NCBI GenBank assembly: GCA_028716045.1
Contig: JAQUQO010000001.1
Span: 320,942 to 384,941 of the forward strand
Length of the DNA stretch: 64,000 nucleotides
DNA from: Patescibacteria group bacterium
GTDB taxonomy: Bacteria > Patescibacteriota > Patescibacteriia > JAQUQO01
Reading direction: 5' to 3'
The position numbers and the translations under genes were made by a program. Positions 2,507 to 58,863 of the stretch are shown piece after piece (the stretch's first letter is position 1; the number at the start of each line of letters is the position of its first letter). Under the pieces are notes generated by a model. It did no database searches and was not told the DNA's origin. It saw only the letters and a program-made list of their open reading frames with translations.

Positions 2507-2526
2507 GTTTGGTCAATATAAAATAT

Positions 2527-2985
2527 ATGGCTAAAAAATTGCCCATAGAAAAGGGTGAAAAAAATAAAATATTGCGCAGAAAGTCGGTGGAGTTAGCCAC
2601 CGAAAAAATTACCTCTTCAGAAATCAAGGAGTTGATTGGCGATATAATAAAGACGATGAAAGAAGAAAAAGGTGTTGGTTTAGCTGCTCCACAAATCGGA
2701 GAAAATATCCGTTTGTTTTGTGTTGATACCAAAGAAAAACCTTTGATTTTTATTAACCCTCGTATAACAAAAAAATCTCTCGGGAAAGAAATAGCCGACG
2801 AGGGATGTTTGTCATTGCCAGGAGTATGGGGTCCAGTAAAGAGAAGTAAAAGCGTAGAAGTGTCTTTTTATAACGAGCAGGGTATAAAAATAAAAATTAA
2901 AGCGAGCGGTCTGCTTGCCCGGGTGATTCAACATGAGTATGACCATTTAGACGGTATTTTATTTATTGACAGATTGAAAAAATAA
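2527..2985 (+). CDS. def: peptide deformylase
   Basis: Motifs GVGLAAPQIG, EGCLSLPG and QHEYDHLDG. Start moved to ATG 2527 (MAKKLPIEKG...) because the upstream TTG overlaps the -10 box. Confidence 0.93.
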   Translation: MAKKLPIEKGEKNKILRRKSVELATEKITSSEIKELIGDIIKTMKEEKGVGLAAPQIGENIRLFCVDTKEKPLIFINPRITKKSLGKEIADEGCLSLPGVWGPVKRSKSVEVSFYNEQGIKIKIKASGLLARVIQHEYDHLDGILFIDRLKK

Positions 2986-2988
2986 AAT

Positions 2989-3016
2989 GGGAGAGCTACA
3001 CAATTATAGCTCTCCC
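2989..3016 (+). promoter_or_regulatory. perfect 10-bp stem hairpin between def and fmt; possible attenuator or RNA-processing site
   Basis: GGGAGAGCTA cacaatta TAGCTCTCCC. No clean T-tract follows it. Confidence 0.3.
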
Positions 3017-3091
3017 CTCTGCCGGGTTGGAGTTGTCTCTTTTGGACAATCGGTTAAATAATATAATATTAAATATTTTTTGTCAATATTA

Positions 3092-14544: not shown

Positions 14545-15588
14545 TTAGATAATTAACATCCCATCGCCGAAAGAAAAGAATTTACAATTTTTTTTGATAG
14601 CTTTTTTGTATACTGATAAAAGTTTTTCTCTGCCTATCAGCGCGGCAACGAGCATCAGTAAACTGGATTGTGGTACATGAAAATTGGTGATTAGCCCGTC
14701 TATAGATTTAAATTTATAGCCTTCACTGATAAATAAATCTGTGGTTCCGGACAATTTTTTGATTTTCCCTTGTTTGCCAACCGCCGATTCCAAGGTTCTA
14801 ACCACGGTAGTCCCTACTCCAATAACCGGTCGCCCCGACTTTTTTACTTTAGTCAAAAAATTTGCGGTGTTCCTGTCTATTTTATAATACTCTTTGTGCA
14901 GTCGTCCGGATAAGATGTTCTCTTCGGTAAGCGGGGCAAAAGTCCCGAGATTAACGTGTAAAGTAATAAAGACAGTTTTAATCCCTTGTTTTTTGAGTTT
15001 TGTCAAAAGCCGTTTGGTAAAATGCAAAGAAGCTGTAGGCGCCGCGACTGAACCCGGTTCGCGGGCAAAAATTGTTTGATATTGTTTTTTGATTTCCCTT
15101 GGTGTAAGCGGCGAGTTCTTAATATACGGTGGTATAGGGGCCTCACCTTTTTCATTCAATACCGCAAAAAATTTTTTAAACAAGAATGACGGCTTCAAGA
15201 AATAATATTTACCTTTTTGTTTAATTACCCTTAAGGGCATACTTTTATCTAAATACAAAACGGAAGGGATATTTATTTTGCGGTCAGCCATAACTTTCAA
15301 AACATTTTTCTCTTTACTTAAATATAAAATACGCACCTTACCGCCAGTATCTTTTTTTAAAGTAAGTCGCGCTGGGATAACTTTTGTTTCATTAAAAACC
15401 AAAACCGCCCGGGGCGGGAGATATTTTGGCAGATTAGAAAAAGTGTCCCAAAAAATTGCGCCGTCCTTTCTTCTATAAATCAAAAGTTTGGCTTTATCAC
15501 GAGGAGAAGCCGGTTTTTGAGCGATTAATTTTTTCGGAAGTTTATAATCGTATCTTTTTAAAAACGCTTCAAGATTTTGTGTAGGCAT
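14545..15588 (-). CDS. queA: S-adenosylmethionine:tRNA ribosyltransferase-isomerase
   Basis: IAQKPASPRDKAKLL, VGTTVVRTLES. Confidence 0.93.
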   Translation of the reverse strand: MPTQNLEAFLKRYDYKLPKKLIAQKPASPRDKAKLLIYRRKDGAIFWDTFSNLPKYLPPRAVLVFNETKVIPARLTLKKDTGGKVRILYLSKEKNVLKVMADRKINIPSVLYLDKSMPLRVIKQKGKYYFLKPSFLFKKFFAVLNEKGEAPIPPYIKNSPLTPREIKKQYQTIFAREPGSVAAPTASLHFTKRLLTKLKKQGIKTVFITLHVNLGTFAPLTEENILSGRLHKEYYKIDRNTANFLTKVKKSGRPVIGVGTTVVRTLESAVGKQGKIKKLSGTTDLFISEGYKFKSIDGLITNFHVPQSSLLMLVAALIGREKLLSVYKKAIKKNCKFFSFGDGMLII

Positions 15589-25228: not shown

Positions 25229-26863
25229 TTATTGTTCACGCCGGTGACGCAGAGAATTCAGCGAAATTTCCTCTGCGTTATCATCAACTTTTAATATCGG
25301 CTCCACTTTGTAGGTTTTTTGGGCCGGTAAGGGTTTTTTGTCTTCGCGTTCCAAAGACGCCAGTTGTTCCCTTAATAATTGAGTTTTATCCCGCCGACTT
25401 CTGGCTTTAGCTAAACATTCCCGGCAATAAACCGGACGCACGCCGTCGGGCTTGAAATTTACCATTATCTCCGCCCCACATTCGGCACATTTTGCTGGAT
25501 ATTGGACAATGTCTTTTTTCTCTATTCTTCCGCCCTCTCCTCCTTCGCCCTCCTTTTCTCTTCTGATATTTTCTTTCGCTTCTTCACTAATACTCCAACG
25601 CATAATTTTTTCTTCCACTACCGACCGCGGTTTGGTATAACGTTCTCTGGAAACTTTAATAATCTTTTCCCTATTCTCCTGGCGCTTGGCAATCGGCGGC
25701 AAGGTGGTGGCGGAAAAAGGCATGGTAGCCACGCCGTCAACCATCAGTTTTAGATAAACATCGTATTTTGTCAGGTTAACCAAATCCTGTTCGGTGAATT
25801 GTGGAGCGAACTCTTTTTCCAAGACCTCGGCATCGGCGGCGCCGACGCGAAAACAGACCAGCGTGCCGACGTTGCCAAAAACCGCGGCCTGAACCTTTTC
25901 ATCAAGCTGTTCAATATACTGATGACCGACTATTAAATTCAAATGATATTTGCGGGCTTCCGACAGAACATTGGCGAAAGATTCGGTGGAAAAATTCTGG
26001 AACTCGTCAATATAAAGATAAAAATCCGGCCGGTCCTCTTCCGGCATATCAATTCTTTCCATGGCCGCCAACTGAATTTTGGTAATCATCATCGCGCCGA
26101 GCAAAGAAGAATTATCCTCACCCATTCTGCCCTTGGAAACATTCAAAATTAAAATTTTCCGGTTATCCATAATATCGCGGATGTCAATGGTGGATTTCAC
26201 CTGGCCGACGACATTGCGAATCAAAGGGCTAGATAAAAACTGCCCGACCTTATTTTGAATCGGAGAAATAACTTCCTGTAAAACCCTTTCATTCCATTTG
26301 GAATACTCATCAACCCAAAAAGACCTGACCACGGGGTCGGTAATATTATTGATGACTTTTTTGCGGAAAGATTTGTCGGTTAAAATTCTCATTACGCCGA
26401 GCAAAGTGCTTCCCGGATAATCCAGCAATGCCAAAATGGCATTTCTCAAAATATACTCCAAGCGTGGTCCCCAGGAATCAGCCCAAATCTTTTTGAAAAT
26501 TCCGATAAGCCCCGAAGCGATTAAATGCTGTTGGGCCACGTCAACTTTCTCCAAAACATTAAAAGCAATCGGATATTCCATATCCGCCGGATTGAAATAA
26601 ATCACATCGTTTATCCTGGTGGGCGGAATAAAATCCAAAATTTTTTCGGCCATATCACCATGCGGGTCAACAACCGCCACGCCTTGGCCACTCATTATGT
26701 CCTGCACCACCATATTTTCAATTAAAGTCGTTTTGCCCATGCCGGTTTTACCAATTACATACATATGCCGTCGGCGGTCGTCGGTTCTTATGCCAAATCT
26801 GACCTTTTTATTGCGAAAATTAGTTGTGGCAAAAAAATTTATCTTTTCGGCCATATTATTCAA
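25229..26863 (-). CDS. TraD/VirD4 (T4CP)-like FtsK-HerA superfamily P-loop ATPase, lacking a TM domain, with a C-terminal CxxC-N17-CxxC zinc ribbon
   Basis: Walker A VIGKTGMGKTT; VVDPHGD (cf. DPKGD of TrwB/TraD); Walker B FYLYIDEFQNF; RKYHLNLIVGHQYIEQL; C-terminus CAECGAEIMVNFKPDGVRPVYCRECL. The start overlaps the upstream gene's stop by 8 nt. Confidence 0.7.
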   Translation of the reverse strand: MNNMAEKINFFATTNFRNKKVRFGIRTDDRRRHMYVIGKTGMGKTTLIENMVVQDIMSGQGVAVVDPHGDMAEKILDFIPPTRINDVIYFNPADMEYPIAFNVLEKVDVAQQHLIASGLIGIFKKIWADSWGPRLEYILRNAILALLDYPGSTLLGVMRILTDKSFRKKVINNITDPVVRSFWVDEYSKWNERVLQEVISPIQNKVGQFLSSPLIRNVVGQVKSTIDIRDIMDNRKILILNVSKGRMGEDNSSLLGAMMITKIQLAAMERIDMPEEDRPDFYLYIDEFQNFSTESFANVLSEARKYHLNLIVGHQYIEQLDEKVQAAVFGNVGTLVCFRVGAADAEVLEKEFAPQFTEQDLVNLTKYDVYLKLMVDGVATMPFSATTLPPIAKRQENREKIIKVSRERYTKPRSVVEEKIMRWSISEEAKENIRREKEGEGGEGGRIEKKDIVQYPAKCAECGAEIMVNFKPDGVRPVYCRECLAKARSRRDKTQLLREQLASLEREDKKPLPAQKTYKVEPILKVDDNAEEISLNSLRHRREQ

Positions 26864-39128: not shown

Positions 39129-40091
39129 CTAAAATCCTATAAATTGCACTTCCTCCTCTAATCTCAAACCAAACTTAGCAAAAACTTTTTCTTTAATCAA
39201 GTTGGTTAAATTTAAAATATCTTTAGCCGTGGCCTTATTCTGATTTAAAATAAAATTGGCGTGCTTTATGGAAACTCGCGCTCCGCCGATTATCTGTCCT
39301 TTTAATCCGCACTGCTCTATAAGCCAACCGGCGGGAATTATCCCTTTTAACGAAAATTCTTCCCGAACGATTGCGCTGACTCTTTCTTTTTCTTTCCCGT
39401 CTAATTTATCCAAATAAACATTTTTAAACATACAGCCGGCCGTTGGATGCGAAACGTCCTGACCTTGCGTCTTTTTTGTCAGATATTCCTGAATCTTCCG
39501 ATTGCTGGCTTCCTTATCGCCCGGTTTTAGATTAAGCACGGCCCGCAAAATTATATCTCCATTATTTTTAAAATCGCTGTGTCGATAAGAAAAACCGCAA
39601 CTTTTATTATCCAAAATAACTATTTCTCCGTTTCGTAAAACTTCCACGCTTTCCACTATGTCTTTAATTTCCCCGCCCCACGCGCCGGCATTGCCGCGAA
39701 TCGCTCCGCCCAAAGTTCCGGGAATCCCCGCCGCCCATTCCAATCCGCTTAAATTATTATTCACTGAAAACATCAATAATTTATTTAAATTAACTCCCGC
39801 TCCGGCCGTGATTTTATCAGCGGATATTTTAAGTTCGTCAAAATCAATCTTAATAACCAAACCGGCAAATCCCTCATCCGCAACAAGGATATTGCTTCCC
39901 CCGCTCAAAACAAAAACGGGAAGATTGTCTTCCCCTGCCGCTCTTATCGCGCTTTTTAATTCCTCAATGTCTTTTACCTCCAGAAAATATCTGGCCGGTC
40001 CGCCGATTTTAAAAGTGGTGTATGGCGCTAAAGGTTCGTCTATTTTTATATTTTGTAATTTATTTAATTCTGACATACAACGAATTAACAA
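39129..40091 (-). CDS. murB: UDP-N-acetylenolpyruvoylglucosamine reductase
   Basis: FAD-binding region GGPARYF...VFVLSGGSNILV and the MurB C-terminal domain. Confidence 0.9.
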   Translation of the reverse strand: MLIRCMSELNKLQNIKIDEPLAPYTTFKIGGPARYFLEVKDIEELKSAIRAAGEDNLPVFVLSGGSNILVADEGFAGLVIKIDFDELKISADKITAGAGVNLNKLLMFSVNNNLSGLEWAAGIPGTLGGAIRGNAGAWGGEIKDIVESVEVLRNGEIVILDNKSCGFSYRHSDFKNNGDIILRAVLNLKPGDKEASNRKIQEYLTKKTQGQDVSHPTAGCMFKNVYLDKLDGKEKERVSAIVREEFSLKGIIPAGWLIEQCGLKGQIIGGARVSIKHANFILNQNKATAKDILNLTNLIKEKVFAKFGLRLEEEVQFIGF

Positions 40092-40117
40092 GTTGAGAGA
40101 TACGAAGCAAAAATTAT

Positions 40118-40180
40118 GAATTAGGAATTAGGAGTTAGGAGTTAGGAGTTACAAGTTATAAGTTACGAGTTGCGAGTTTT
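40118..40180. repeat. heptanucleotide tandem repeat, 9 units of NAGTTAN
   Basis: gaattag gaattag gagttag gagttag gagttac aagttat aagttac gagttgc gagtttt. It spans the murB-murC intergenic region and the last codons and stop of murC. Confidence 0.7.
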
Positions 40181-41565
40181 AATTTCTGAATTATCTTCAC
40201 TGGCATATCCCCTGCCCCCAAAAGCAAAATCACGTCTGTTTGGTCAAGGACACGCGCGATTTCCCTTTCAGTATAATCTATATCCGGCGTATAAATCACC
40301 TCCCTCTCGCGATTATTTGATTTGTCATGCCTTTTTATGGCTTCCACCAGTTTTTGCGAATTTACATCCTCATCGTCTTTTTCCTCACGACCGGCCACAT
40401 CGTATATTTCATTAATAATAACCAAATCGGCTTCGTCCAGAGATTTTACAAAATTTACAAATAAATTCTTGGTGCGATTATGCTGATGGGGCTGGAAAAC
40501 CGCCACCACGCGCCGATGCGGATAAAAATCCTTAGCCGCTCTCAAAACCGCGCGCAAAGACGTGGGATGATGGGCATAATCGGAAATAAAAATCGCGCCA
40601 TCTTTCTCGCCGATTTTTTCAAACCTCCGCCAAGCCCCCTGATAATTTTCTAACGCTTTTTTAATTCTCTTAACGCTGATTTTTAAGTGAAACCCCAAAG
40701 CAATGACTGCCAAAGCATTATAAACATTGTGCCGTCCCGGGATATTCAAAGAAAAAGTGTCAATTTTTTTACCGTTATGATAAACGTCAAAATATTGTTT
40801 GCCGTTCTCGCTGTAAATGTCTTTAGCCGTGACATTGGCTAAATTGTCTATTCCGTACGTAATCCGGCTTCTCATCGTTTTTATTTCCATGGAATTGGCG
40901 TCATCGGCATTGCAGATAAAAACTCCCTGCTCCGGCAATTTATCTATGAATGACTGGAAGGTTGATTTAATATGGTCTATGCCGGTATAAAAATCCAAAT
41001 GGTCTTCTTCAATGTTAGTGAGCAGAATTATTTTAGGTTCAAGGTTCAGCATGTGAGCCCGATATTCGCAGGCCTCTACGACAAAATTTTCCCCCTTGCC
41101 AAATCTTAAATTACCATCCGTAAAATTTTCCACCTTACTGCCCACAACCACCAGCGGGTCAAACTTGCCGGCTTCCAAAAGCAAGCCAGCCATAGAAGTG
41201 GTAGTTGTTTTGCCGTTAGTTCCACAGATGGCGATAGTATCTTTTTCTTTACTGATTAATCCCAGTACTTCCGGATAACTTAATTGCGGGATGTCAAACT
41301 CCCGCGCTTTTTTTCTCTCCGGATTTTTCTCGGGCACGGCCGCGGAATAAACGACCAGCTCGGTCTTGGGGTCAAGATTGCCGCTTTTGTGTTTGCTAAA
41401 AAAATTTATCTGATATTTTTTTAAATCCTCGGTGATGGCCGTTTCTTCCAGGTCCGAACCGGAAACTTTTTTCCCCTGTTTGGCAAAAAGTTTAGCCAGA
41501 GCCGAAATGCCGATTCCGCCCACTCCGATAAAGTGAATTTTTTTAATTTTTCCTAACTCCACCAT
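40156..41565 (-). CDS. murC: UDP-N-acetylmuramate--L-alanine ligase
   Basis: IHFIGVGGIGISALAKL...GKKVSGSD and ICGTNGKTTTTSM. The start is taken at the internal Met. An alternative start at 41613 is possible. Confidence 0.9.
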   Translation of the reverse strand: MVELGKIKKIHFIGVGGIGISALAKLFAKQGKKVSGSDLEETAITEDLKKYQINFFSKHKSGNLDPKTELVVYSAAVPEKNPERKKAREFDIPQLSYPEVLGLISKEKDTIAICGTNGKTTTTSMAGLLLEAGKFDPLVVVGSKVENFTDGNLRFGKGENFVVEACEYRAHMLNLEPKIILLTNIEEDHLDFYTGIDHIKSTFQSFIDKLPEQGVFICNADDANSMEIKTMRSRITYGIDNLANVTAKDIYSENGKQYFDVYHNGKKIDTFSLNIPGRHNVYNALAVIALGFHLKISVKRIKKALENYQGAWRRFEKIGEKDGAIFISDYAHHPTSLRAVLRAAKDFYPHRRVVAVFQPHQHNRTKNLFVNFVKSLDEADLVIINEIYDVAGREEKDDEDVNSQKLVEAIKRHDKSNNREREVIYTPDIDYTEREIARVLDQTDVILLLGAGDMPVKIIQKLKLATRNL

Positions 41566-48195: not shown

Positions 48196-51100
48196 TTAAT
48201 AAAATCCCGTATCTATATCATCCATAATATCCTTGCCTTTTTCTCCCGAATCTACTTTCGGTTCTTGCTGAGCATCTTTAATCTCTGCTGGAGCCGGGGG
48301 AATTTCTTTTTTTATTTCTGGACTCGCTGCCGGTCTTGATAGTGGAACTTCCGGGGCTGGCGGGGCTGAAATCCCCATTCCTTCTGTTGATTTCTCTAAG
48401 GGCATATCCAGGGTAATCGCGCCGGCTTTTTCTTTGGCTAAATCAATCGGTGAAGATTTATATGATTTGTAATCCTCTCTTTCGGAAGTAAGATAATAAA
48501 CGTTCGGGCCAACCAAGAACCCGTATCGGCCGGCGGAATCAGTAACTTGAGCCGCTAGTAATTTATTGAATTGAATATCAAAAATGCGAACCACGGCTTT
48601 GCCCAAAGGTTTTTTCGTCCCCTTATCATAAACAATACCCCAACCCTTTGGTTTTGAAGGATAAGCCAAGCGGCGGAACAAGAAATAAAGCATAAAATGA
48701 AGCGCCACCAAAATTCCCATCAGTAGTTTAGGCACAATGGCAAAGGTGACAATTGACAAGCCCAATCCGGAAAGCGAAATGCCATTTTGCACCCGACGAC
48801 CGACGGCCAAAGCTAAAATCTTTCTGTTCGGCTTGTCTTCTTTCACCGGGTCAAGCGGGATATTGGCGGTAATAACAGCTCCGCTTGCTTCTACTTTTAT
48901 GTTTTCCCCGTGGTATAAATCAAGGAACGCCATATCCTCTTTTTTCTCTCCCAACAATGACGTGGGATATTTAAATTCCACTTTTTTCACCTCTATCCGA
49001 TAAGTCCCCGCTTCTTTAATTATCAGATTATAACGCCCTTGTTTGTCGGTAATTTGCGTCTGAACTAAAGTTCCGTTTTGGACATTAATCAAGCGGACAA
49101 TAGCCAAATCAATCGGCTCCTTGGAAATAGAATTATACACCGTCCCCCAGCCCTTCCTCTTGCGACGCGATAATAATCTAAAAGGTTCGGTGAAAATAAA
49201 CTGTAAATAAGGAATGAGATACACAAAAGAGATAGCCGTGGAAGCATTAACCGCCACCACCGCCACTAAAGTCGGGGCGACGTAATTTTGAGCGGCTTTT
49301 TCCACCTGCGGGTCATCAGCCAGCTCTCCCACGGTATTAACTATAACTTCAACTGTTCCCACAAGGGAATTGAGGAAATCCGCAACCGGTGATTCCACTA
49401 TGTCCTCTTCGTTATTGTCATCAATACTCAAACACCCCGCGTCAGCCGGATAATCCGTCTGACCATCTCCATCATTATCCGCCCCGTCAAAACAAGCAGG
49501 GAGAGAAACGGTGAATTCTTCTACGTTGGAGATTATTTTGTATTCCTTGGCTATCTCATCATAAACTCTGACGTAAGATTTATGCGCTCCCGGAGGCAAA
49601 GAAATTTTTATATTTTCCGCCCATTCCTCGTTCTGCGGCGTAAATTCATACTTGTAAATCTCGCTCTCCACGACTAATTCATATGTTTTGCCAATTTCGG
49701 CATTATGCATAATAACGGTAATGCCAGCATCCATTAATTTGCTTTCCGCGGACACTTTGCCTTGCCGCACCTCACTAAGTTTAACTCCCTCCAAGCGAGC
49801 GGCTATTTCTTTGATATTTATTTCACCAATAGTCACTCTTATTATCGTATCTCTTATTTTCTCGCCGATTTCTTCTTCCTGCTCCTCTTTTATTTCTTCC
49901 GCTGTTTTCTCTGTTACTTTAAACTCAAACAAAGAAGAATAAACTTCTCCCACTTTCACTCTTAAAGTATGCGCCCCAAATAATAATTCATCCGTTAAAG
50001 TATAGCTGAAAAAACCTTCGCTGTTAGCTTTCGTGCTGTCCAGATATTCTCCGTCCAAATAAATATCCACTGCGCCGTTGCTGACATAAGCGTTACCCCT
50101 GATAGTCGGCGCTGTGTCAGTAATTTCGGAATTGTCCCCGGGATATGTGATAACCGGTGGTTTTTGTTCTGCTTTTTTATATAATCCAAAATACGCCGAA
50201 CCCTTGCCGCCGCGTTCCAAATCCACGGTTACCATTTCCGAAGTAGTCAGAGTGTATCCGGAAGGCAAAACCAGAGAATATTTCCCTTTTTCTATCTTTC
50301 CGATTTTAACAAAATGTTTTCCCGCTCTTCTGCCATCCACCGTAGAATGCCCCCCTGCCACGGAACTCACGGAATACACATTAACTTCTGTTTCCTGCGG
50401 ACCACTCAAAGCCCCGTCTCCATTCAAATCATAATAAACGAGCGTTCTGATTCCTTGCACACCCTTCTCGCCCTTGTCATATTGGCCATTATTGTTGCCG
50501 TCAAAAAAAGTAAAAATATCAATGGCGCCGGCGCTGACCGGATTTAAAAGGGTGTTGGAGGTAGCAGATTTATTTTCTCCGTTTTGCGTATATTCGGCTT
50601 TAGCCACATTAGAAATAGTATGGGGCACACTTTGCTTTACCTCATCAGGCGAAACTTTAAAGGGTAATGTCAGATAACCTGACTGACCGGCTTTTACTTC
50701 TCCCAAATTAAATATTATTTCGCAAGAGCTGGTCTCCTCTTCCCCTGCACATTTTAGAAAATCTTCCAACCGGCCAACCGACTCGCTATTTTTCTTCAAA
50801 TAACCGTCGTCAAAAATAACTGAATCTATTTTATCTTTTATAACTACGTTTTTCAGATCGTCTTTCGTTTGATTGATATAATCAATCTGATAAACAATAC
50901 TGTCTTCCGGCTGCACTGCCACGCCATTGCCGGCGTAATTTTCCACTTTTATTGAAGCATCATTTAATCCGGCCATGGTAGCCATCATCGCCACTTTCAC
51001 TATTCCCAAAACAACTGCCATTGCTAAAGTGGAATAGGCCTTTCTCTCAAATCTTATTCTCACCATGGAACGCGCGGCTCGATTCCACAAAACCAGATGA

Positions 51101-54100
51101 TAGCTTAAAATAACCAAAGAAATCAAAATAAAAAAAGACATCACCGCTGAAAAATTTCTAAGATACTTTAGATTCTCCAGCGGCTGGATTTTTGTTCCGA
51201 TATTTAAAGAGGAGCTTAAAACCGCGGAGCCCTTCACTTCTCCCTGCCCCGGTTCCTTAATGACCGCTGTTTTAATAAGCGTGAAAGACGGGGGCAAGGT
51301 TTTGGCCGTGAGCGCTTCTGACCAGGGCGTGTCAACTCCTCCGCCATTTCGTCCCCTGGCGCGAATAGTATAAGAAGTGTCGGGTTTTAAATTGCCAAAG
51401 GTAAAACTATTTTGTCCGGCGGCGAATTCCGAAGCCAGCGGTGTTCCGTCTTCCGGAATTCTATCTCCCTCGTAGATTTCAAAAGTCACTCCCGCTTGCT
51501 CCCAATCCGTCCCGACCGGGAAAGAATAATTATCCACGCTCGCCCATAAAGAAGTAGTGAGCGCCGCCTGCAAGGTCGGCTTAGACGGCGGTTCAGCTAA
51601 AGTCCAAACAGCGGGACAAACCGCGCAATCTCCCGAATAAGCATTGGTTATTTTATTTTTTACGCAAACCTTGCGGCCATCAAGTTTAGTATTATATTTT
51701 AATCCTTCCTTCGAACTCTCCTCGTAAAAGCCAAAATATTCCTGCGTAAAATACGCATAAACAGTGGACTCCTTCGCCGGAATCCAGGACTTTAAATACT
51801 GGTCGGTATTGTAAACAGCCGTCAAATATCCGGACCAAGGAGTGGTGTACCCGGAAGAAACCACATCCACCATTTTGTCAGAGGTCACAAAAGGAACAAA
51901 TTCCAGATTATCCCTGTCGGATTCGTTCAAAAAATCAATGGGAAAATCCACCACCCAAATAATAGCATGCCCTTCTCTGCCCCCATAAGAACTGGCGTCA
52001 AATCCTCCGAAGCCGCGGCAATTGGTCGCGTTAACCATAAACCCGGCCGCGATATCTTCGGCATAATTTAAAGTGACATTATAAATTATGGGCGTATCCG
52101 TATCCGGCGTTAATACGGCCTTCCATCTCAAATCGCTTCCGCTGGTGGCAAAAACGTATTCCACCCCATTCGTCACCGCCACCCAAGTGGTCCCGCCATC
52201 ATTGCTTAAATAATAGGCAATAGTGGAAGCGCCCGGCAGATAATGTTCGGCCGTTAAGGTGGCTCTTAAGATATTTCTCCCAGGATTGGCCATGGCAACG
52301 GATTGAGCGATATAAGTGCCGGCGGTTTGAGTTAATTGCGGAGTGAAAATAAAGGAATCGCCCGAAGAATAAGCGACCAGCAGTTCTTTCATGGAGTCGC
52401 GATTAATGTCATGGGCGAAAACCGCGGAGGAAGGTGCGGCGCTTAATAATTCCACGGTAAAATCGCCCCGACCGTCGTTCCGGTAAATATATGTTCCTGC
52501 GGCGCCACCAACTAAATATAAATCAACATCTCCGTCATTATCCAAATCATCGCCCCGGAAAATTCCCGTCGTGCCCAATGACTGTTTAGTAAATGAGCCT
52601 TGGCCATTATTCCAATAGATGGCGGAGTTTATATCGGAATTAGAAACGACGACGTCTTTCCAGCTATCGCCGTTTAAATCGGCGGAAACTATATTATCTG
52701 TGCTGCCTTCTCCGAATTGGCTTTCCCGTATAAATGTTCCGCTGCCATTATTCCTGTATAAAAAATTCTGCTGGCTTACTCTATCACCCACCAAAATATC
52801 CACGTCTCCGTCATTATCTATGTCATCCGTGTATCCCTGAAGCGTGTTCTCCCACGCCAAACCCAAATCTTCCTGAATAAAAGTTGAACCATCGCCGTTG
52901 TTTCTAAAAATAAAATTCTGGCCGTTTTCAAAAATAATAATATCCTGGTCGCCATCCCCTTCCACGTCCGCCGGCCAAAGCTGTCTTTCATTACCAATAC
53001 TTACTATTTGGGTTATAGTGCTGAAATTGCCCGCGCCGTCATTGAAATAAACGCAATCCCAGCCGTTATCAGCCCCCACTAAAATATCCAGATACCCGTC
53101 GCCGTTAAAATCAGCCGCGCCATCAATATCATTATTGGCGCAAGAAACATTGGTAAAGGGAGCGGTGGCCGTAAATCCCCCACCACCATCGCCCAGATAG
53201 ATTTTACTGCTGGTGGCGGCATCGGCTCCGGACAGCACCGCCAAATCTTCATAACCATCATAATTCACATCCCCCAAAGGCATTATTTTTGAAGTCTGCG
53301 CGGGGAAATTGGCTCCGCCGTAAAGTTGCGCCCAACCGCCATCGGCGTCATTATTATGAAGATTATTTTCATAAATATAATTTTGGTCATCGGCATCGGC
53401 GCAAGTTCCGCCGATACAAGAAAAATAATGAATGATATCCTCATCGCCGTCTTTATCTATATCCGCAGCCGCCAAGTTATCCGCCTTATCAACATTAGCT
53501 GACCCACTGGCGAAATATCCGGTTTCTTCCGTAAAAGTCCCGCTGCCCTTATTGCGCAACAGGCCGTTGATGCCCACGCCGCTCGCTATGACCGCCAAAT
53601 CCATATCACCGTCCAAATCGGCGTCAACGTCAATCATTTTGGCGTAATTAAAACTAAAAGCGGCATTGGCCGTAAAAGTTCCTTGCCCGTTATTTTGATA
53701 TAAAAATAAACTCGCGCCATTTGAAGCAATGATGTCCTCATCTCCGTCATTATCAAAATCATTAACCACCAAACTATCGTTGCCGCTACCGGCCGCATAA
53801 GCCAAAGTGCTCGCCAAAGTAAAGGCGCCCGTCCCATCATTAGTATAAATTTTCGCGCCAACGCCGTTATCGCAAACAATGACGTCCATGTCTCCGTCAA
53901 CGTCAACGTCAACGGCTTTAATGGTCCGAGTGTCGCCAGCGTTGAAAGTGTCACTGGAAGTGAACGTGCCATCACCGTCATTGAGCCAGAGTTTATCCTG
54001 CGCGGCGGTTCCTTCCAAGATATCAACATCGCCGTCCTTATTAACATCGGCCGCGTCCAAAGATTGGGTATTGCTGGCACCAAATCCCGAGTATTCGCTG

Positions 54101-57100
54101 GCCGCGCCAAAAGTTCCGCTGCCATTATTCAAATAATAATAATTTTGACCATTGTTGCCTTGAATAATATCCTTATCACCATCCTCGTCTAAATCCACGG
54201 CTAAAAGCGTATTGGTATTTCTGCTCGTGCCGCCGTCGGGAAAAGGAGTTGATTCTGTAAAAGTTCCGCTGCCATTGTTCTTGTATAAATACATTGGGTT
54301 GCCATAATTGCCCGCTACAATATCCTGATCTCCATCAGTATCAATATCAACGGACAGAATAAAGGAGGTGTCATTGGCCGCGGCCGCCGGACTTAAAGCG
54401 GCGCTGCCGACAGCGAAAGTATTGGTCGCTGGCGCCCGAATCACCTCTCCGACAGCGCTCCATTCGGTCGTAGTGGTGGCGCTATCGCGCCAAACTGTGG
54501 TGTCAAAAGTATCAGTAATGCTTCCCCTGATGGCGGTAAAAGAAAAAGTGGCGCTATAAGCTGTGCCGCCGTTTTCATCAACGCCCGCCACCCTCCAATA
54601 ATAAGTCGTCTTGGGGGTTAAAGTATATTTCGCGGGTAAGGTGAAAGAAGCCGTATCTCCGGAATTATAAAAATTGACCTGCGACCATCCCAGAGAATCA
54701 TCTTTGACATACCAGATATTGTCTTCTTTTTGGTAAAAAGTTAAAACATCTTTGTTAAACGATGAATCCGCGGCGATTTCCAAAATATAATGCAGAGTAT
54801 CACTATCCGTATCCGTAGTGGAAAATTCAAAAGTGGGGTTTAAAGAAACTCCGGTCGCTCCGTCAGCCGGCGCGGTTAAAGAGGGTGTCCCGGGGTTGGT
54901 GTTGCCGTAAGTTATGGAAATATCAGAAATTGACGCCGAATAAGCGACATCCGTGGTGGCTAATATCGCCTTCCATCTTAAATCTGAACCAGTGGTTGTA
55001 AAAGTATGCGCTACTCCGGAAGTGGCCGCCTCCCAAGTTCTGCCGCCATTGTTGGATAAATAATAAGTGACAGAAGTGTTGGTCGGAGTAGTGGCCGTGG
55101 CTGTAAGAGTAGCCACATTTATATTTTCCACCGTGCTATCAACTATCTTGGATAGTATTGTGCTGTTATTATATTTATAAGAAAAGCTCTGCTCTAATTC
55201 GCCATAACCGCTCAAAAATATTTTTTTATCAACGTCATAATTAGGAGAGACAACTAAGGACTTATAATTAACGTCAGCCAGAGAGCTTCTGCTTTTCCAA
55301 ATTAAATCAATTGAAGTATCGTCGGTAAAAATAGTGTCCGAACTGTTGTGGGAAACTCCGCGCAAATCCAGATAACCATTATTATCCATATCGATAAGAC
55401 AGATGCTTGCGTCCGGACCGTAATCACTGGCTGGCTCGCCCGGGTCATAGGTGTAATCCGCGGTAGTGTTAAAAGTAGGGGCTCCATAATAGGCATAAAA
55501 CTTTCCGCGATGAAAAGTTTCTCCCGCTGACGCCCGATAATCCGGAGCCGCCACGACGACATCATCATAACCATCTTTATCTACATCGGCTGCTTCTACT
55601 AATTCGCCAAAATCGCTGCCGCTATCGTCAGCAGAATCATTGATAGTGCTATTGGCAGAAACGGTTGTCAGAGTGGATGCCAGTGAAGCGCTGCCGTTAA
55701 AAACATAAACACGCCCATCGCCGTCGCCAGCAGCACGAGAAGCTCCCACCACAATATCGTTATACCCATCGCCATTCACATCACCGGCAAGGGATAAATC
55801 TATGCCAAAAACATCACCAGCATCACCGGTTAAGGTGACGTCAGCCGTTGTATCAAAAGATTTTCCGCCGTAATAAATATAAACCCGCCCGGTATTAGCG
55901 CTGTAACTGGGCGCGCTAATCGCCAAATCATCAAACCCGTCGCCATTAACATCACCGGCACTCACCGCCGCTCCAAAAAGGTCGCCAGCCGCCGCGCCGG
56001 ACAAAGCATAATCATACACGTCATTAAAAAGTTTTCCCCCAAAATAAATCACCACTCCGCCCTGATTAGCTCCCTCTCCATTATTGTAGGTATATATACC
56101 TACAATAATATCTTTAAAACCATCGCCATTGATATCGGCAATAGTCACGCCATTATCACTGATTGTTTCAGCCGTAACATCCACATCGTCTAACGTATAA
56201 TCAACCACTGTATTAAACGTACTGCCGCCCAATAATACTTCAAGATTGGCGCCGTTTTTATCTAGCACATCCGCATAACCATCACCGTTAATATCGCCTC
56301 CGGCATAGATATTATTAAGCGTGTAATCTGCCGTGTTATCAATTCCGGCGGTGGCATTTAAAAATATACTCGTGGCATTAGCCAAATCCTCCAAACCGTC
56401 ACCGTTAATATCGCCCAAATTAACCCCTCTCTTTTGCTCCGCGTAAGAAGAGCCAAAAGCGCTGGGCATTAAATTCCAATTCTTAGCCGTGCCGCTATTA
56501 GAACTCACATATATTTGCGGAGTATCATTAAAACCTGCCCAAATACGTTTGTCACTGCCGCTATAATTATAATCTGGGGAAATGGCTATAGTCCGCAGGA
56601 TCTCTGTCATTCCTGTCGGCGTTATATCTGAAGCTCCCCCTTCAAAACGGTCCACTGTCATATATAAACTGACAGTGGTGTTGCTCCAAACCCAAGCCAC
56701 GCATTTTTCCGGATTGGCAACGCAATTAGCGGTTCCATCAAATTGCGGAGCTAATAACAAATGGTCCCAGCTCCCTCCGGGAATCACCGCCCAGCTAGTA
56801 CCACCATCTATTGTTACTAGACGGGCGCCGGTAGTGGTGGCAAGAACCTCGCTATCAGTTGCGAAGTTTGGGGATATTTTTATATCTGTCACTTCATTTA
56901 CCACATTTGTTCCCGCGTCAAAAGTGGCTCCGGAATCGATGGATTCGTAAATTTTACCGCCGGCCGTGCCTAAAAATAAATTTGCGGAATTTGCCGGGGA
57001 AATAGCAATGACAGTAATGCGATCATACGTTGTGCCAACGGGAGCACAGGAAATAGTGGAGGCCGTCTGGGCCCAAGTAGCACCGCCATCAGTGCTTTTA

Positions 57101-58863
57101 TAAAATTTACAGGCAGTGGCGTTGATTCCCCATTCACCGGCGTAAATAGTACTATCAGTAATATAATTAGGAGAAAGTTGATAAGCGGAAATATAAGAAG
57201 TGGCGGCGGTGATTCTCGTCCAAGTTATTCCGCCATCGGTTGATTTATAAATAAAACCATTGCAGATATTTTCTCCGGCCACATCACCCTCTTGGGAGCA
57301 GGCAAATATCGTGTTGTCACTGGCAAAATTCGGAGATACTTGAACATCTATTAAATCCCCGAGCGATAGACCAGTTAGATAAGAAACTGTCCATACTCCT
57401 CCGCTATTAACGGCTTTTTGCAACCCCTGCCCAAGGGTGCTCATTATTATAGTGCCATCAGTAGTATAATTAGGTGACATGTCTCCATCGGTCACTTTCC
57501 TCATTGTTCCATCGGTTGTAAGGTCAGCTATTTGCGAACATTCCACGCCCAAAGCCAGACCCCCCCCATCATCAACACACTGCCAAGAACCCCAGTTTTG
57601 TATTTCCCAATGTTGGTTGAAATAATAAATCTCATCTTCGGCACTGTAAGCGGCGCTATTATACGCCGGAGAAATTTCTAAACCGTCCTGCGCCATGGCT
57701 GCTATATTTTTAGACCAAGCGCAAGCCGAAACATTTGGGTCATTACAAGTAGTGGTCTTAAACGTTTGGCCCGTATAAGTCGGCGCGCTTCCGCCGGAAA
57801 CGGCTAAAATCGTATTGTCAGTATTATAAGCCGGAGAAAATTCTATATCATTAATATATCCTTCACCCCCAGGAGTCGGGAGGGTTACGCCAGTATTTAT
57901 CTCCGTCAAAGTGCAGGTGGCGGCCGCGGCTGTACAATCGCCGGAACCAAAAAATCCGCTGCCTTCAGTTCCTACAATAATCGTGCCGTCAGTAGCGTAT
58001 GCCGGAGAAACTTTTAAAACAGTAATATCCCCCGCAGCGGTGGAAGCTACTGCCGCGTTACCATTATCCCAGGTGACACCCTTGTCATGGCTTTTATAAA
58101 TAGCTTGGCCGGTGGAACCGAAAAGAGTGCAGCCAGTTGGCGTCGTGACGCAATCGGCCGTAGTATCACTATAAGAAGTGGCAGGCATTAAAGCTAAAGC
58201 AACGGGGGCTGTAAAACTAGCCCAAGTTGAACCACCGTCAGTACTTTTATAATTGCCATAAGTAAGGGTCGTGTAATCCAAGACCAGAACAAAAATAGTT
58301 GAATCATTATCATAATCAGGCGACAGAGCATACAAACTAACAACTTTCCCGCTGACTATTTTAGTGGCGTTATCAATAGACCAACCACCGCCCGCTAAAG
58401 TATCGGTCCAAGTCGCACCCTTGTCCTCACTTTTATATAAACCGCCGTTAAATCTGACAAACATCGTGCAGTTTGCCGGGTTAGCTCCACAATTCGCTTC
58501 ATTTTCATTATAAGAAGGGCTTAAGGCGGGCGTATCAGGTGAGCTGGCCGTATCAAACCCGCTCCCTGAAATATCCCATAAACCATCACCTGCTAAAGAC
58601 GTTACCGTGCCGGCCGAAGAATTCCACGAGGCCGTAGAATGCGCCAAGTCCAAATTAGCGCCGGTAGAAAGGTTGTCGATGAAAGTGTACCCCGTAGCTT
58701 TGGCGTTTCTGTCCGTCCACAAGTTTATGCCGTAAATCAAAGACAATACCAAAGAAATAATAGCTAAAACCGAAACAAACCCAAAAAGTTTTCTGAGGCC
58801 GAAAAGGTCGCGGCAAAAATGTAAATACTGGCCAAAAAGTTTATTGGCTTTCCCTCGTTTCAT
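48196..58863 (-). CDS. giant multidomain surface protein (3555 aa): signal anchor, BNR/Asp-box beta-propeller, FG-GAP/VCBS repeat arrays, Fn3-like repeats, SdrD-B/Cna-B-like and CarbopepD_reg-like domains, several TM segments
   Basis: Repeated YKS(T/E)DGG(A/S)TW Asp-box motifs. More than 25 D(I/V/L)(N/D)xDGxxD(I/L)(I/V)VG FG-GAP-type repeats. A duplicated segment YYLSN(N/D)GG(R/T)TW...GSDLRWKA(I/V)L. FFDGNNNGQYDKGEKGVQG. A Cys-rich CFDGADNDGDGQTDYPADAGC. Three internal hydrophobic helices. Confidence 0.85.
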   Translation of the reverse strand: MKRGKANKLFGQYLHFCRDLFGLRKLFGFVSVLAIISLVLSLIYGINLWTDRNAKATGYTFIDNLSTGANLDLAHSTASWNSSAGTVTSLAGDGLWDISGSGFDTASSPDTPALSPSYNENEANCGANPANCTMFVRFNGGLYKSEDKGATWTDTLAGGGWSIDNATKIVSGKVVSLYALSPDYDNDSTIFVLVLDYTTLTYGNYKSTDGGSTWASFTAPVALALMPATSYSDTTADCVTTPTGCTLFGSTGQAIYKSHDKGVTWDNGNAAVASTAAGDITVLKVSPAYATDGTIIVGTEGSGFFGSGDCTAAAATCTLTEINTGVTLPTPGGEGYINDIEFSPAYNTDNTILAVSGGSAPTYTGQTFKTTTCNDPNVSACAWSKNIAAMAQDGLEISPAYNSAAYSAEDEIYYFNQHWEIQNWGSWQCVDDGGGLALGVECSQIADLTTDGTMRKVTDGDMSPNYTTDGTIIMSTLGQGLQKAVNSGGVWTVSYLTGLSLGDLIDVQVSPNFASDNTIFACSQEGDVAGENICNGFIYKSTDGGITWTRITAATSYISAYQLSPNYITDSTIYAGEWGINATACKFYKSTDGGATWAQTASTISCAPVGTTYDRITVIAISPANSANLFLGTAGGKIYESIDSGATFDAGTNVVNEVTDIKISPNFATDSEVLATTTGARLVTIDGGTSWAVIPGGSWDHLLLAPQFDGTANCVANPEKCVAWVWSNTTVSLYMTVDRFEGGASDITPTGMTEILRTIAISPDYNYSGSDKRIWAGFNDTPQIYVSSNSGTAKNWNLMPSAFGSSYAEQKRGVNLGDINGDGLEDLANATSIFLNATAGIDNTADYTLNNIYAGGDINGDGYADVLDKNGANLEVLLGGSTFNTVVDYTLDDVDVTAETISDNGVTIADINGDGFKDIIVGIYTYNNGEGANQGGVVIYFGGKLFNDVYDYALSGAAAGDLFGAAVSAGDVNGDGFDDLAISAPSYSANTGRVYIYYGGKSFDTTADVTLTGDAGDVFGIDLSLAGDVNGDGYNDIVVGASRAAGDGDGRVYVFNGSASLASTLTTVSANSTINDSADDSGSDFGELVEAADVDKDGYDDVVVAAPDYRASAGETFHRGKFYAYYGAPTFNTTADYTYDPGEPASDYGPDASICLIDMDNNGYLDLRGVSHNSSDTIFTDDTSIDLIWKSRSSLADVNYKSLVVSPNYDVDKKIFLSGYGELEQSFSYKYNNSTILSKIVDSTVENINVATLTATATTPTNTSVTYYLSNNGGRTWEAATSGVAHTFTTTGSDLRWKAILATTDVAYSASISDISITYGNTNPGTPSLTAPADGATGVSLNPTFEFSTTDTDSDTLHYILEIAADSSFNKDVLTFYQKEDNIWYVKDDSLGWSQVNFYNSGDTASFTLPAKYTLTPKTTYYWRVAGVDENGGTAYSATFSFTAIRGSITDTFDTTVWRDSATTTTEWSAVGEVIRAPATNTFAVGSAALSPAAAANDTSFILSVDIDTDGDQDIVAGNYGNPMYLYKNNGSGTFTESTPFPDGGTSRNTNTLLAVDLDEDGDKDIIQGNNGQNYYYLNNGSGTFGAASEYSGFGASNTQSLDAADVNKDGDVDILEGTAAQDKLWLNDGDGTFTSSDTFNAGDTRTIKAVDVDVDGDMDVIVCDNGVGAKIYTNDGTGAFTLASTLAYAAGSGNDSLVVNDFDNDGDEDIIASNGASLFLYQNNGQGTFTANAAFSFNYAKMIDVDADLDGDMDLAVIASGVGINGLLRNKGSGTFTEETGYFASGSANVDKADNLAAADIDKDGDEDIIHYFSCIGGTCADADDQNYIYENNLHNNDADGGWAQLYGGANFPAQTSKIMPLGDVNYDGYEDLAVLSGADAATSSKIYLGDGGGGFTATAPFTNVSCANNDIDGAADFNGDGYLDILVGADNGWDCVYFNDGAGNFSTITQIVSIGNERQLWPADVEGDGDQDIIIFENGQNFIFRNNGDGSTFIQEDLGLAWENTLQGYTDDIDNDGDVDILVGDRVSQQNFLYRNNGSGTFIRESQFGEGSTDNIVSADLNGDSWKDVVVSNSDINSAIYWNNGQGSFTKQSLGTTGIFRGDDLDNDGDVDLYLVGGAAGTYIYRNDGRGDFTVELLSAAPSSAVFAHDINRDSMKELLVAYSSGDSFIFTPQLTQTAGTYIAQSVAMANPGRNILRATLTAEHYLPGASTIAYYLSNDGGTTWVAVTNGVEYVFATSGSDLRWKAVLTPDTDTPIIYNVTLNYAEDIAAGFMVNATNCRGFGGFDASSYGGREGHAIIWVVDFPIDFLNESDRDNLEFVPFVTSDKMVDVVSSGYTTPWSGYLTAVYNTDQYLKSWIPAKESTVYAYFTQEYFGFYEESSKEGLKYNTKLDGRKVCVKNKITNAYSGDCAVCPAVWTLAEPPSKPTLQAALTTSLWASVDNYSFPVGTDWEQAGVTFEIYEGDRIPEDGTPLASEFAAGQNSFTFGNLKPDTSYTIRARGRNGGGVDTPWSEALTAKTLPPSFTLIKTAVIKEPGQGEVKGSAVLSSSLNIGTKIQPLENLKYLRNFSAVMSFFILISLVILSYHLVLWNRAARSMVRIRFERKAYSTLAMAVVLGIVKVAMMATMAGLNDASIKVENYAGNGVAVQPEDSIVYQIDYINQTKDDLKNVVIKDKIDSVIFDDGYLKKNSESVGRLEDFLKCAGEEETSSCEIIFNLGEVKAGQSGYLTLPFKVSPDEVKQSVPHTISNVAKAEYTQNGENKSATSNTLLNPVSAGAIDIFTFFDGNNNGQYDKGEKGVQGIRTLVYYDLNGDGALSGPQETEVNVYSVSSVAGGHSTVDGRRAGKHFVKIGKIEKGKYSLVLPSGYTLTTSEMVTVDLERGGKGSAYFGLYKKAEQKPPVITYPGDNSEITDTAPTIRGNAYVSNGAVDIYLDGEYLDSTKANSEGFFSYTLTDELLFGAHTLRVKVGEVYSSLFEFKVTEKTAEEIKEEQEEEIGEKIRDTIIRVTIGEINIKEIAARLEGVKLSEVRQGKVSAESKLMDAGITVIMHNAEIGKTYELVVESEIYKYEFTPQNEEWAENIKISLPPGAHKSYVRVYDEIAKEYKIISNVEEFTVSLPACFDGADNDGDGQTDYPADAGCLSIDDNNEEDIVESPVADFLNSLVGTVEVIVNTVGELADDPQVEKAAQNYVAPTLVAVVAVNASTAISFVYLIPYLQFIFTEPFRLLSRRKRKGWGTVYNSISKEPIDLAIVRLINVQNGTLVQTQITDKQGRYNLIIKEAGTYRIEVKKVEFKYPTSLLGEKKEDMAFLDLYHGENIKVEASGAVITANIPLDPVKEDKPNRKILALAVGRRVQNGISLSGLGLSIVTFAIVPKLLMGILVALHFMLYFLFRRLAYPSKPKGWGIVYDKGTKKPLGKAVVRIFDIQFNKLLAAQVTDSAGRYGFLVGPNVYYLTSEREDYKSYKSSPIDLAKEKAGAITLDMPLEKSTEGMGISAPPAPEVPLSRPAASPEIKKEIPPAPAEIKDAQQEPKVDSGEKGKDIMDDIDTGFY

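Follow-up and report, generated by a model that had tools for sequence, protein, structure and literature searches.

A heptanucleotide repeat across the murC stop codon of a Patescibacteria group bacterium, probably a decaying, lineage-specific simple-sequence repeat

We analyzed a 64-kb stretch of DNA from a Patescibacteria group bacterium, here called the window, and found that the heptanucleotide array at the end of its murC gene is probably a lineage-specific simple-sequence repeat, born by replication slippage, now decaying and with no dedicated function. As it stands, the tract is one more heptanucleotide simple-sequence repeat and matters little. Its arrangement is instructive in one respect: a repeat is self-buffering when its unit includes a stop codon and its period is not divisible by three, and such a repeat can spread into the 3′ end of an essential gene while leaving the length of the encoded protein intact.

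The array consists of 10 units, which read in mRNA sense AAAACTC, GCAACTC, GTAACTT, ATAACTT, GTAACTC, CTAACTC, CTAACTC, CTAATTC, CTAATTC and ATAATTT (Table 1). The nine units quoted in the original prediction are present at exactly 40118-40180 on the + strand, and a tenth, degenerate unit extends the array at 40111-40117 (+ strand aaattat). As had been claimed, the array covers the murC stop codon and enters the murC-murB spacer: the TAA at 40158-40156 lies in unit 4 and is followed by a further 45 nt of repeat. The C-terminus of MurC reads ...KLKLATRNL*, its last 7-8 codons being built from units 1-4. The gene order on the minus strand is a DUF212 protein, murC, the 79-nt spacer, murB, thymidine kinase and secA; the curated NCBIfam cutoffs for the two Mur models are 335.1 bits (murC, TIGR01082) and 259 bits (murB, NF010480), and the MS... 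start of murB matches that of a relative's murB, which opens ATG AGT. Two + strand ORFs, at 39658-40119 (153 aa) and 40170-40415 (81 aa), lie antisense to murB and murC, the first ending and the second starting at the array; in all likelihood both are spurious and bounded by the repeat's stop codons. Elsewhere in the window, a 3555-residue ORF (48196-58863, minus strand) combines many FG-GAP repeats with matches to fibronectin type III, CarboxypepD_reg and BNR, and is a probable giant surface protein.

Table 1. Coordinates of the array, its flanking genes and the second, shorter array (positions are those of the window unless a locus is named)
Feature	Position	Strand	Basis or remark
Heptanucleotide array, 10 units	40111..40180	-	Unit reading, Tandem Repeats Finder and pattern match
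Longest perfect period-7 tract, TTAGGAG x3.4 (24 nt)	40128..40151	no strand	Perfect-tract scan
murC (UDP-N-acetylmuramate--L-alanine ligase, 469 aa)	40156..41565	-	TIGR01082, 451.7 bits
murC TAA stop, inside unit 4 (ATAACTT)	40156..40158	-	
murC-murB spacer, 79 nt	40077..40155	-	First 45 nt array, last 34 nt unique sequence
murB (UDP-N-acetylmuramate dehydrogenase, 315 aa), downstream of the array	39129..40076	-	NF010480, 312 bits
Second mini-array, GTAACTT ATAACTC AAAACTT GTAGCTT	L131 2965-2997 (also L132 714-746)		About 6.4 kb beyond the window start

The periodicity is well beyond chance. Tandem Repeats Finder reports two overlapping period-7 alignments, one of 5.7 copies with 93% matches at 40112-40151 and one of 7.3 copies with 86% matches at 40128-40178, and their scores of 52-62 are the highest among all tandem repeats in the 64 kb. 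The pattern AGTTANN x3, with at most 2 mismatches allowed, has 7 matches in the window against a chance expectation of 0.16; all of them overlap at the array, and none of 100 shuffled sequences reached that number. The array thus has the properties by which long simple-sequence repeats are recognized, namely tandem units of 5-11 nt and a length exceeding chance, and its description as a heptanucleotide repeat of the slippage type holds. Appreciable slippage potential is confined to the 24-nt perfect tract; no other notable perfect tract of period 7 occurs in the window.

We next consider what a change in unit number would do to the two genes. Each of the 10 units was deleted and then duplicated in a simulation (20 cases), and the resulting MurC tail was translated. 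The tail was 14 residues long in 20/20 simulated cases. Deleting or duplicating any of units 4-10 left MurC unchanged, and deleting or duplicating units 1-3 altered 1-3 residues (for example LATRNL to LVTYNL) at identical length. The explanation lies in the unit itself. Every unit from the third onward contains TAA in mRNA sense, and 7 equals 1 modulo 3; therefore each sense frame carries three TAA codons, and the next in-frame stop keeps the same absolute position. All three sense frames are closed every 21 nt across the array, and on the + strand no frame stays open either. The affected residues are C-terminal to GAGDM, the last conserved block of MurC, in a tail whose length and sequence differ among relatives, and the alignment to the murC model stops at residue 454 of 469. 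Because these residues are non-conserved, the effect of unit number on the MurC C-terminus carries no functional weight. The expectation that gain or loss of a unit would alter that C-terminus is consequently reduced to at most three residues of a non-conserved tail, at identical length, with no meaningful change; the companion expectation, that it would alter the distance from the murC stop to murB, is correct.

The order of the units is informative about how the array arose. Neighboring units differ at a mean of 1.2 positions, units at a separation of 8-9 at about 3, and identical units stand next to one another (CTAACTC twice, CTAATTC twice). Because neighbors are most alike, the pattern is that of a stepwise local duplication history, in which units mutate and are then duplicated, and not of drift around a selected binding consensus. 

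Five relatives with MurC identities of 53-72% were compared, all of which have murC directly upstream of murB. Their murC-murB spacers measure 3, 18, 37, 91 and at least 135 nt and are unrelated to one another and to that of the window. A heptamer array was sought in these five spacers and is wholly missing from all of them, so that the syntenic site is repeat-free, as expected of a lineage-specific simple-sequence repeat. The MurC protein search returned no sequence between 100% and 72% identity, and unit number therefore cannot be traced across strains. In the nearest relative whose tail is comparable, murC ends ...AAA AAC TTA TAG (K-N-L-stop); AACTTAT is therefore ancestral and older than the array, and is a plausible seed for it. 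Two coding units of the array upstream of this seed (AACTC, AACTC) stand where relatives have the non-periodic AATTG and AAATA, and the tail length is kept. We infer that the array spread into the end of murC, the unchanged tail length being what frame buffering predicts. Across the clade, the murC-murB junction varies from 3 to more than 135 nt, which indicates that tight translational coupling of the two genes is not required. In the relative at 72% MurC identity (ERR15087767, locus L005, positions 2905-3043), there is no tight murC-murB junction; instead, the murC stop is followed by a G+C-rich insert of at least 135 nt with a CCCCCTTTGCTAAAGGGGG hairpin, which may represent a small RNA, a terminator or a miniature mobile element.

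These observations can be assembled into a mechanism. Replication slippage would have been seeded at the ancestral murC 3′ end, AACTTATAA (AAC TTA TAA, N-L-stop); the array would have grown through repeated duplication of adjacent units, and point mutation would now be eroding it. It is probably tolerated, as a neutral tract, because the MurC tail is non-conserved, because its length is buffered by the recurring TAA and because this clade allows the spacer to vary. There is a predicted side effect on translation. In a near relative, the murC stop is 3 nt from the murB ATG, a spacing short enough for termination-reinitiation coupling, and such coupling is nearly lost at intergenic distances of about 20 nt (PMC10666635). 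The array would have pushed murB to 79 nt from the murC stop, so that murB would be initiated afresh and not through termination-reinitiation coupling, on an unstructured, G-poor leader that has no Shine-Dalgarno motif. Uncoupling of murB translation from murC, as a side effect of the array, is therefore likely.

Four assemblies (the window, GCA_028711565.1, and the Logan assemblies of SRR22315508 and SRR22315506) carry the array without a single base difference; they represent one near-clonal population and were compared as assembled sequence, so that rare unit-number variants could escape. Independent assemblies agree on this sequence, which rules out an artefact of assembly. MurC has the same protein sequence as MDD5043263.1 and MDD5490527.1, both from a Patescibacteria group bacterium. 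One assembly with an identical MurC, GCA_028711565.1 (contig JAQTRY010000001.1, 812 kb), carries one SNP relative to the window, at 51908 (A, against T in the window), inside the giant ORF; the Logan contig of SRR22315506 matches the window across 12.5 kb. Because the Logan contigs of both runs pass through the tract unbroken, we infer that neither sample holds a common length variant. Unit number is thus invariant across these assemblies, and the identity of the four gives weak but consistent support for a stable array.

We then asked where else such arrays occur. The home-genome survey covered 82 kb (the window and its 10-kb flanks), about 10% of the genome. No further TAAYT-N2-TAAYT doublets are found in the 64-kb window, against 2.27 expected by chance. 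A second, shorter array lies about 47 kb from the murC array, 5 nt past the stop of a Clp ATPase gene (Table 1), and shares the 13-mer GTAACTTATAACT with it; in 82 kb, the expected number of matches of this quality (three units, at most 1 mismatch) is 0.013. The absence of similar arrays elsewhere, by which the original prediction would have recognized a neutral microsatellite, therefore holds for the rest of the window and fails at this one locus. AACT-rich ends are found in 2/63 ORFs of the 82 kb, those of murC and the Clp ATPase gene only. The gene next to the mini-array is convergent, so that the mini-array is not upstream of a co-directional gene, which argues against a simple leader function. 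The mini-array hints at a recurrent, perhaps selected, gene-end motif, which a purely one-off event does not explain. On its 3′ side there is a hairpin followed by a T-run, terminator-like by eye; its 10-nt loop exceeds the limit of 8 nt in our terminator scan, which did not call it.

Beyond the home genome, a survey of one genome per bacterial or archaeal species with the pattern ARTTANN x4 returned at least 120 stretches from many phyla. In the matches listed, Nostoc has perfect AGTTAGG x8-13 arrays, a sponge symbiont has AATTAGG x5, a Bacteroidetes MAG has 24 units of AGTTATT/AGTTATC, and Saccharibacteria have short arrays; the units AGTTAGG and AATTAGG also appear there in Bacteroidota, Ignavibacteria and Selenomonadaceae, among other groups. 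Among the matches listed, as classified with a crude ORF caller, 10 fall within a called ORF, 24 at locus edges and the others between genes; between co-directional genes there is no orientation bias (37 sense versus 44 antisense), and convergent contexts number 27 versus 6 divergent ones. Many arrays of this core in other bacteria, among the matches listed, adjoin a stop codon. In the same listing, inverted pairs of heptamer arrays of this core 140-200 bp apart are frequent (e.g., AATTAGG x5 ... CCTAATT x5), as at loci L018, L069, L071, L079 and L043. That such a tract should be unexpected in a reduced genome, as the original prediction had it, is not well borne out, since heptamers are reported to be in excess among bacterial simple-sequence repeats (PMC4692102) and, in the summary of Mrazek et al. 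2007 given in PMC4679880, to be the commonest type of long repeat in the majority of the genomes examined. At the syntenic site, related genomes are often without such a repeat, or have it at a length that differs in steps of 7 nt (PMC4679880). The murC array resembles the long prokaryotic heptanucleotide repeats, including cyanobacterial ones, in the features that later accounts give of them (Mrazek et al. 2007 via PMC4679880, PMC4692102): head-to-tail 7-nt units, a length beyond chance, a non-coding and lineage-specific location, and shorter, repeat-free spacers in close relatives. It departs from the typical case, as those accounts portray it, in being short and degenerate, in residing in a small Patescibacteria genome and in having its first units absorbed into an essential gene.

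Several other kinds of element were sought at the locus. In the RNA of the array, 69 nt include 19 C against 3 G, and the predicted mRNA fold leaves the tract unpaired. An RNA family or structure was rejected: an Rfam search of the region with E up to 1 gave no match, and the fold of the region is not more structured than that of shuffled sequence (z = +0.83). A promoter or terminator in the spacer was likewise rejected, none being called on the gene strand; the one weak promoter-like site on the + strand, at 40085-40114, is within chance expectation. A dispersed or mobile element was set aside, the spacer having no second copy in the window. The CUCCU that occurs three times in the mRNA might suggest an anti-Shine-Dalgarno mimic, but there is no nearby Shine-Dalgarno-like partner to sequester. 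On the + strand, the array reads UAG-N4-UAG-N4-UAG-N4-UAG, with the spacing of HutP sites; a HutP/TRAP-type array was rejected, since this strand is antisense to both genes and offers no credible promoter or ORF.

Four alternatives to a decaying simple-sequence repeat were weighed, and the most probable of them, itself unlikely, is that the array is a functional mRNA leader. The comparison that motivates it is with the TAACTGA direct repeats of marine Beggiatoaceae, cyanobacteria and Bacteroidetes (MacGregor 2015, PMC4679880), which, judged by sequence in their Beggiatoaceae form, are the closest published relative of the array. The Guaymas Beggiatoaceae genome has 169 such sets; in Beggiatoaceae they are mostly forward, lie just upstream of starts that have no Shine-Dalgarno motif, and sometimes overlap the end of the upstream ORF, and a role in translation has been proposed, not demonstrated (PMC4679880). 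By analogy, a forward TAACT-type array might recruit ribosomes, or an S1-, Csp- or CsrA-like RNA-binding protein, to murB. The murC array likewise has a TAACT core, is oriented in the sense direction toward a murB ATG that, as in most genes of the window, has no Shine-Dalgarno motif, and is G-poor and unpaired, with no predicted RNA structure. In both systems, sets are interrupted by related heptamers and each unit has a stop codon, so that overlap with the upstream ORF is limited; the murC array overlaps that ORF's end as 14 of the TAACTGA sets do (PMC4679880), and there is a second array of TAACT-type unit within 82 kb of the home genome. However, the murC units are TAACTCC, TAACTTR and TAATTCC and differ from TAACTGA at positions 6-7, and the last of them ends 34 nt before the ATG, versus one to a few nucleotides in the Beggiatoaceae genome. 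The home genome shows two loci in 82 kb, the second of which follows a stop codon and faces a convergent gene. The units are degenerate and patterned by duplication history, relatives manage without the array, arrays of this core have no orientation bias across bacteria among the matches listed, and the function of the TAACTGA arrays is itself a hypothesis.

The other three alternatives are less probable. Ranked next, and very unlikely, is an array of DNA sites for a transcription regulator, which by analogy with the TTTTGAT heptads of Vibrio cholerae ctxAB (10.1101/2021.05.14.444153) would govern an internal murB promoter. Both are tandem heptads and candidate protein-binding arrays, ctxAB shows that heptad arrays are able to recruit regulators, the murC units share the core TAACT/TAATT, and GTAACTTATAACT recurs at the Clp ATPase locus. 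The ctxAB heptads, however, belong to a defined promoter with known regulators bound (10.1101/2021.05.14.444153), whereas the murB strand has no called promoter-like site within the array or downstream of it, the core drifts through AAACT, CAACT, TAACT and TAATT along its length, and no cognate regulator is identified. An array of this kind is expected at a promoter and with a core conserved in every unit; the murC array shows neither, the window has no further doublets where 2.27 were expected, and relatives have no array. The original suggestion of regulator binding sites thus gives way to a duplication history. Third, and hardly probable, is a Rho-utilisation (rut) site, at which Rho would load on 70 nt of C-rich, G-poor, unstructured RNA and impose polarity on murB once translation of murC ends. 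The composition that defines such a site (about 70 nt, C-rich, G-poor, unstructured) is indeed present, the excess of C over G lying in the top 0.2%, and the G-poverty in the top 0.1%, of 70-nt windows on this strand, with the tract unpaired in the predicted fold. It is, however, a trivial by-product of the repeat unit; several stretches in the window are more extreme in C over G, termination ahead of an essential gene would be costly, and relatives have no such tract. Last comes the slipped-strand contingency locus of the original prediction, in which frequent gain and loss of units would switch or tune MurC or MurB, a reading that is barely credible and by now largely refuted. The 7-bp period is out of frame, and the length of the murB leader would follow unit number, much as in Haemophilus influenzae hmw1A and hmw2A, where 7-bp repeats upstream of the gene set the distance from upstream signals to the start and, in the account given in PMC2651432, modulate expression. 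The hmw tracts as described there (Dawid 1999 via PMC2651432), switches with experimental support, are perfect, hold 13-38 copies, vary between strains and serve surface adhesins; the murC array holds no more than 3.4 perfect units, is invariant across four assemblies with contigs unbroken through it, and flanks housekeeping cell-wall enzymes, not surface or restriction-modification genes. Phase-variable tracts are recognized by a long run of identical units (typically at least 6), by unit-number variation between strains, samples or reads and by on/off switching of a product through frameshift or promoter spacing; the array has no such run, its unit number is the same in all four assemblies, and no single-unit change affects the length or domain of MurC, which is not switched.

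The preferred reading, a decaying simple-sequence repeat, treats the murC array as a local event, and the mini-array behind the Clp ATPase gene allows a broader one. Both arrays could be members of a genome-wide set of TAACT-type arrays at gene boundaries, recognized at the mRNA level by an RNA-binding protein or the ribosome, which we consider quite improbable; no more probable, by analogy, is that such a set would be the counterpart of the proposed Beggiatoaceae TAACTGA network in an organism mostly devoid of Shine-Dalgarno motifs. If many gene-boundary arrays did occur genome-wide, they would constitute a second, independent case for TAACT-type heptamers acting in translation.

Translation starts in the window have one further characteristic. 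Several ORFs have a TATAAT-like hexamer 5-12 nt before their start, for example upstream of 14545-15588 (minus strand), 26856-28268 (minus strand) and 2509-2985 (+ strand), which, with most ORFs of the window having no Shine-Dalgarno motif, suggests that many mRNAs of this organism are leaderless or have a very short leader.
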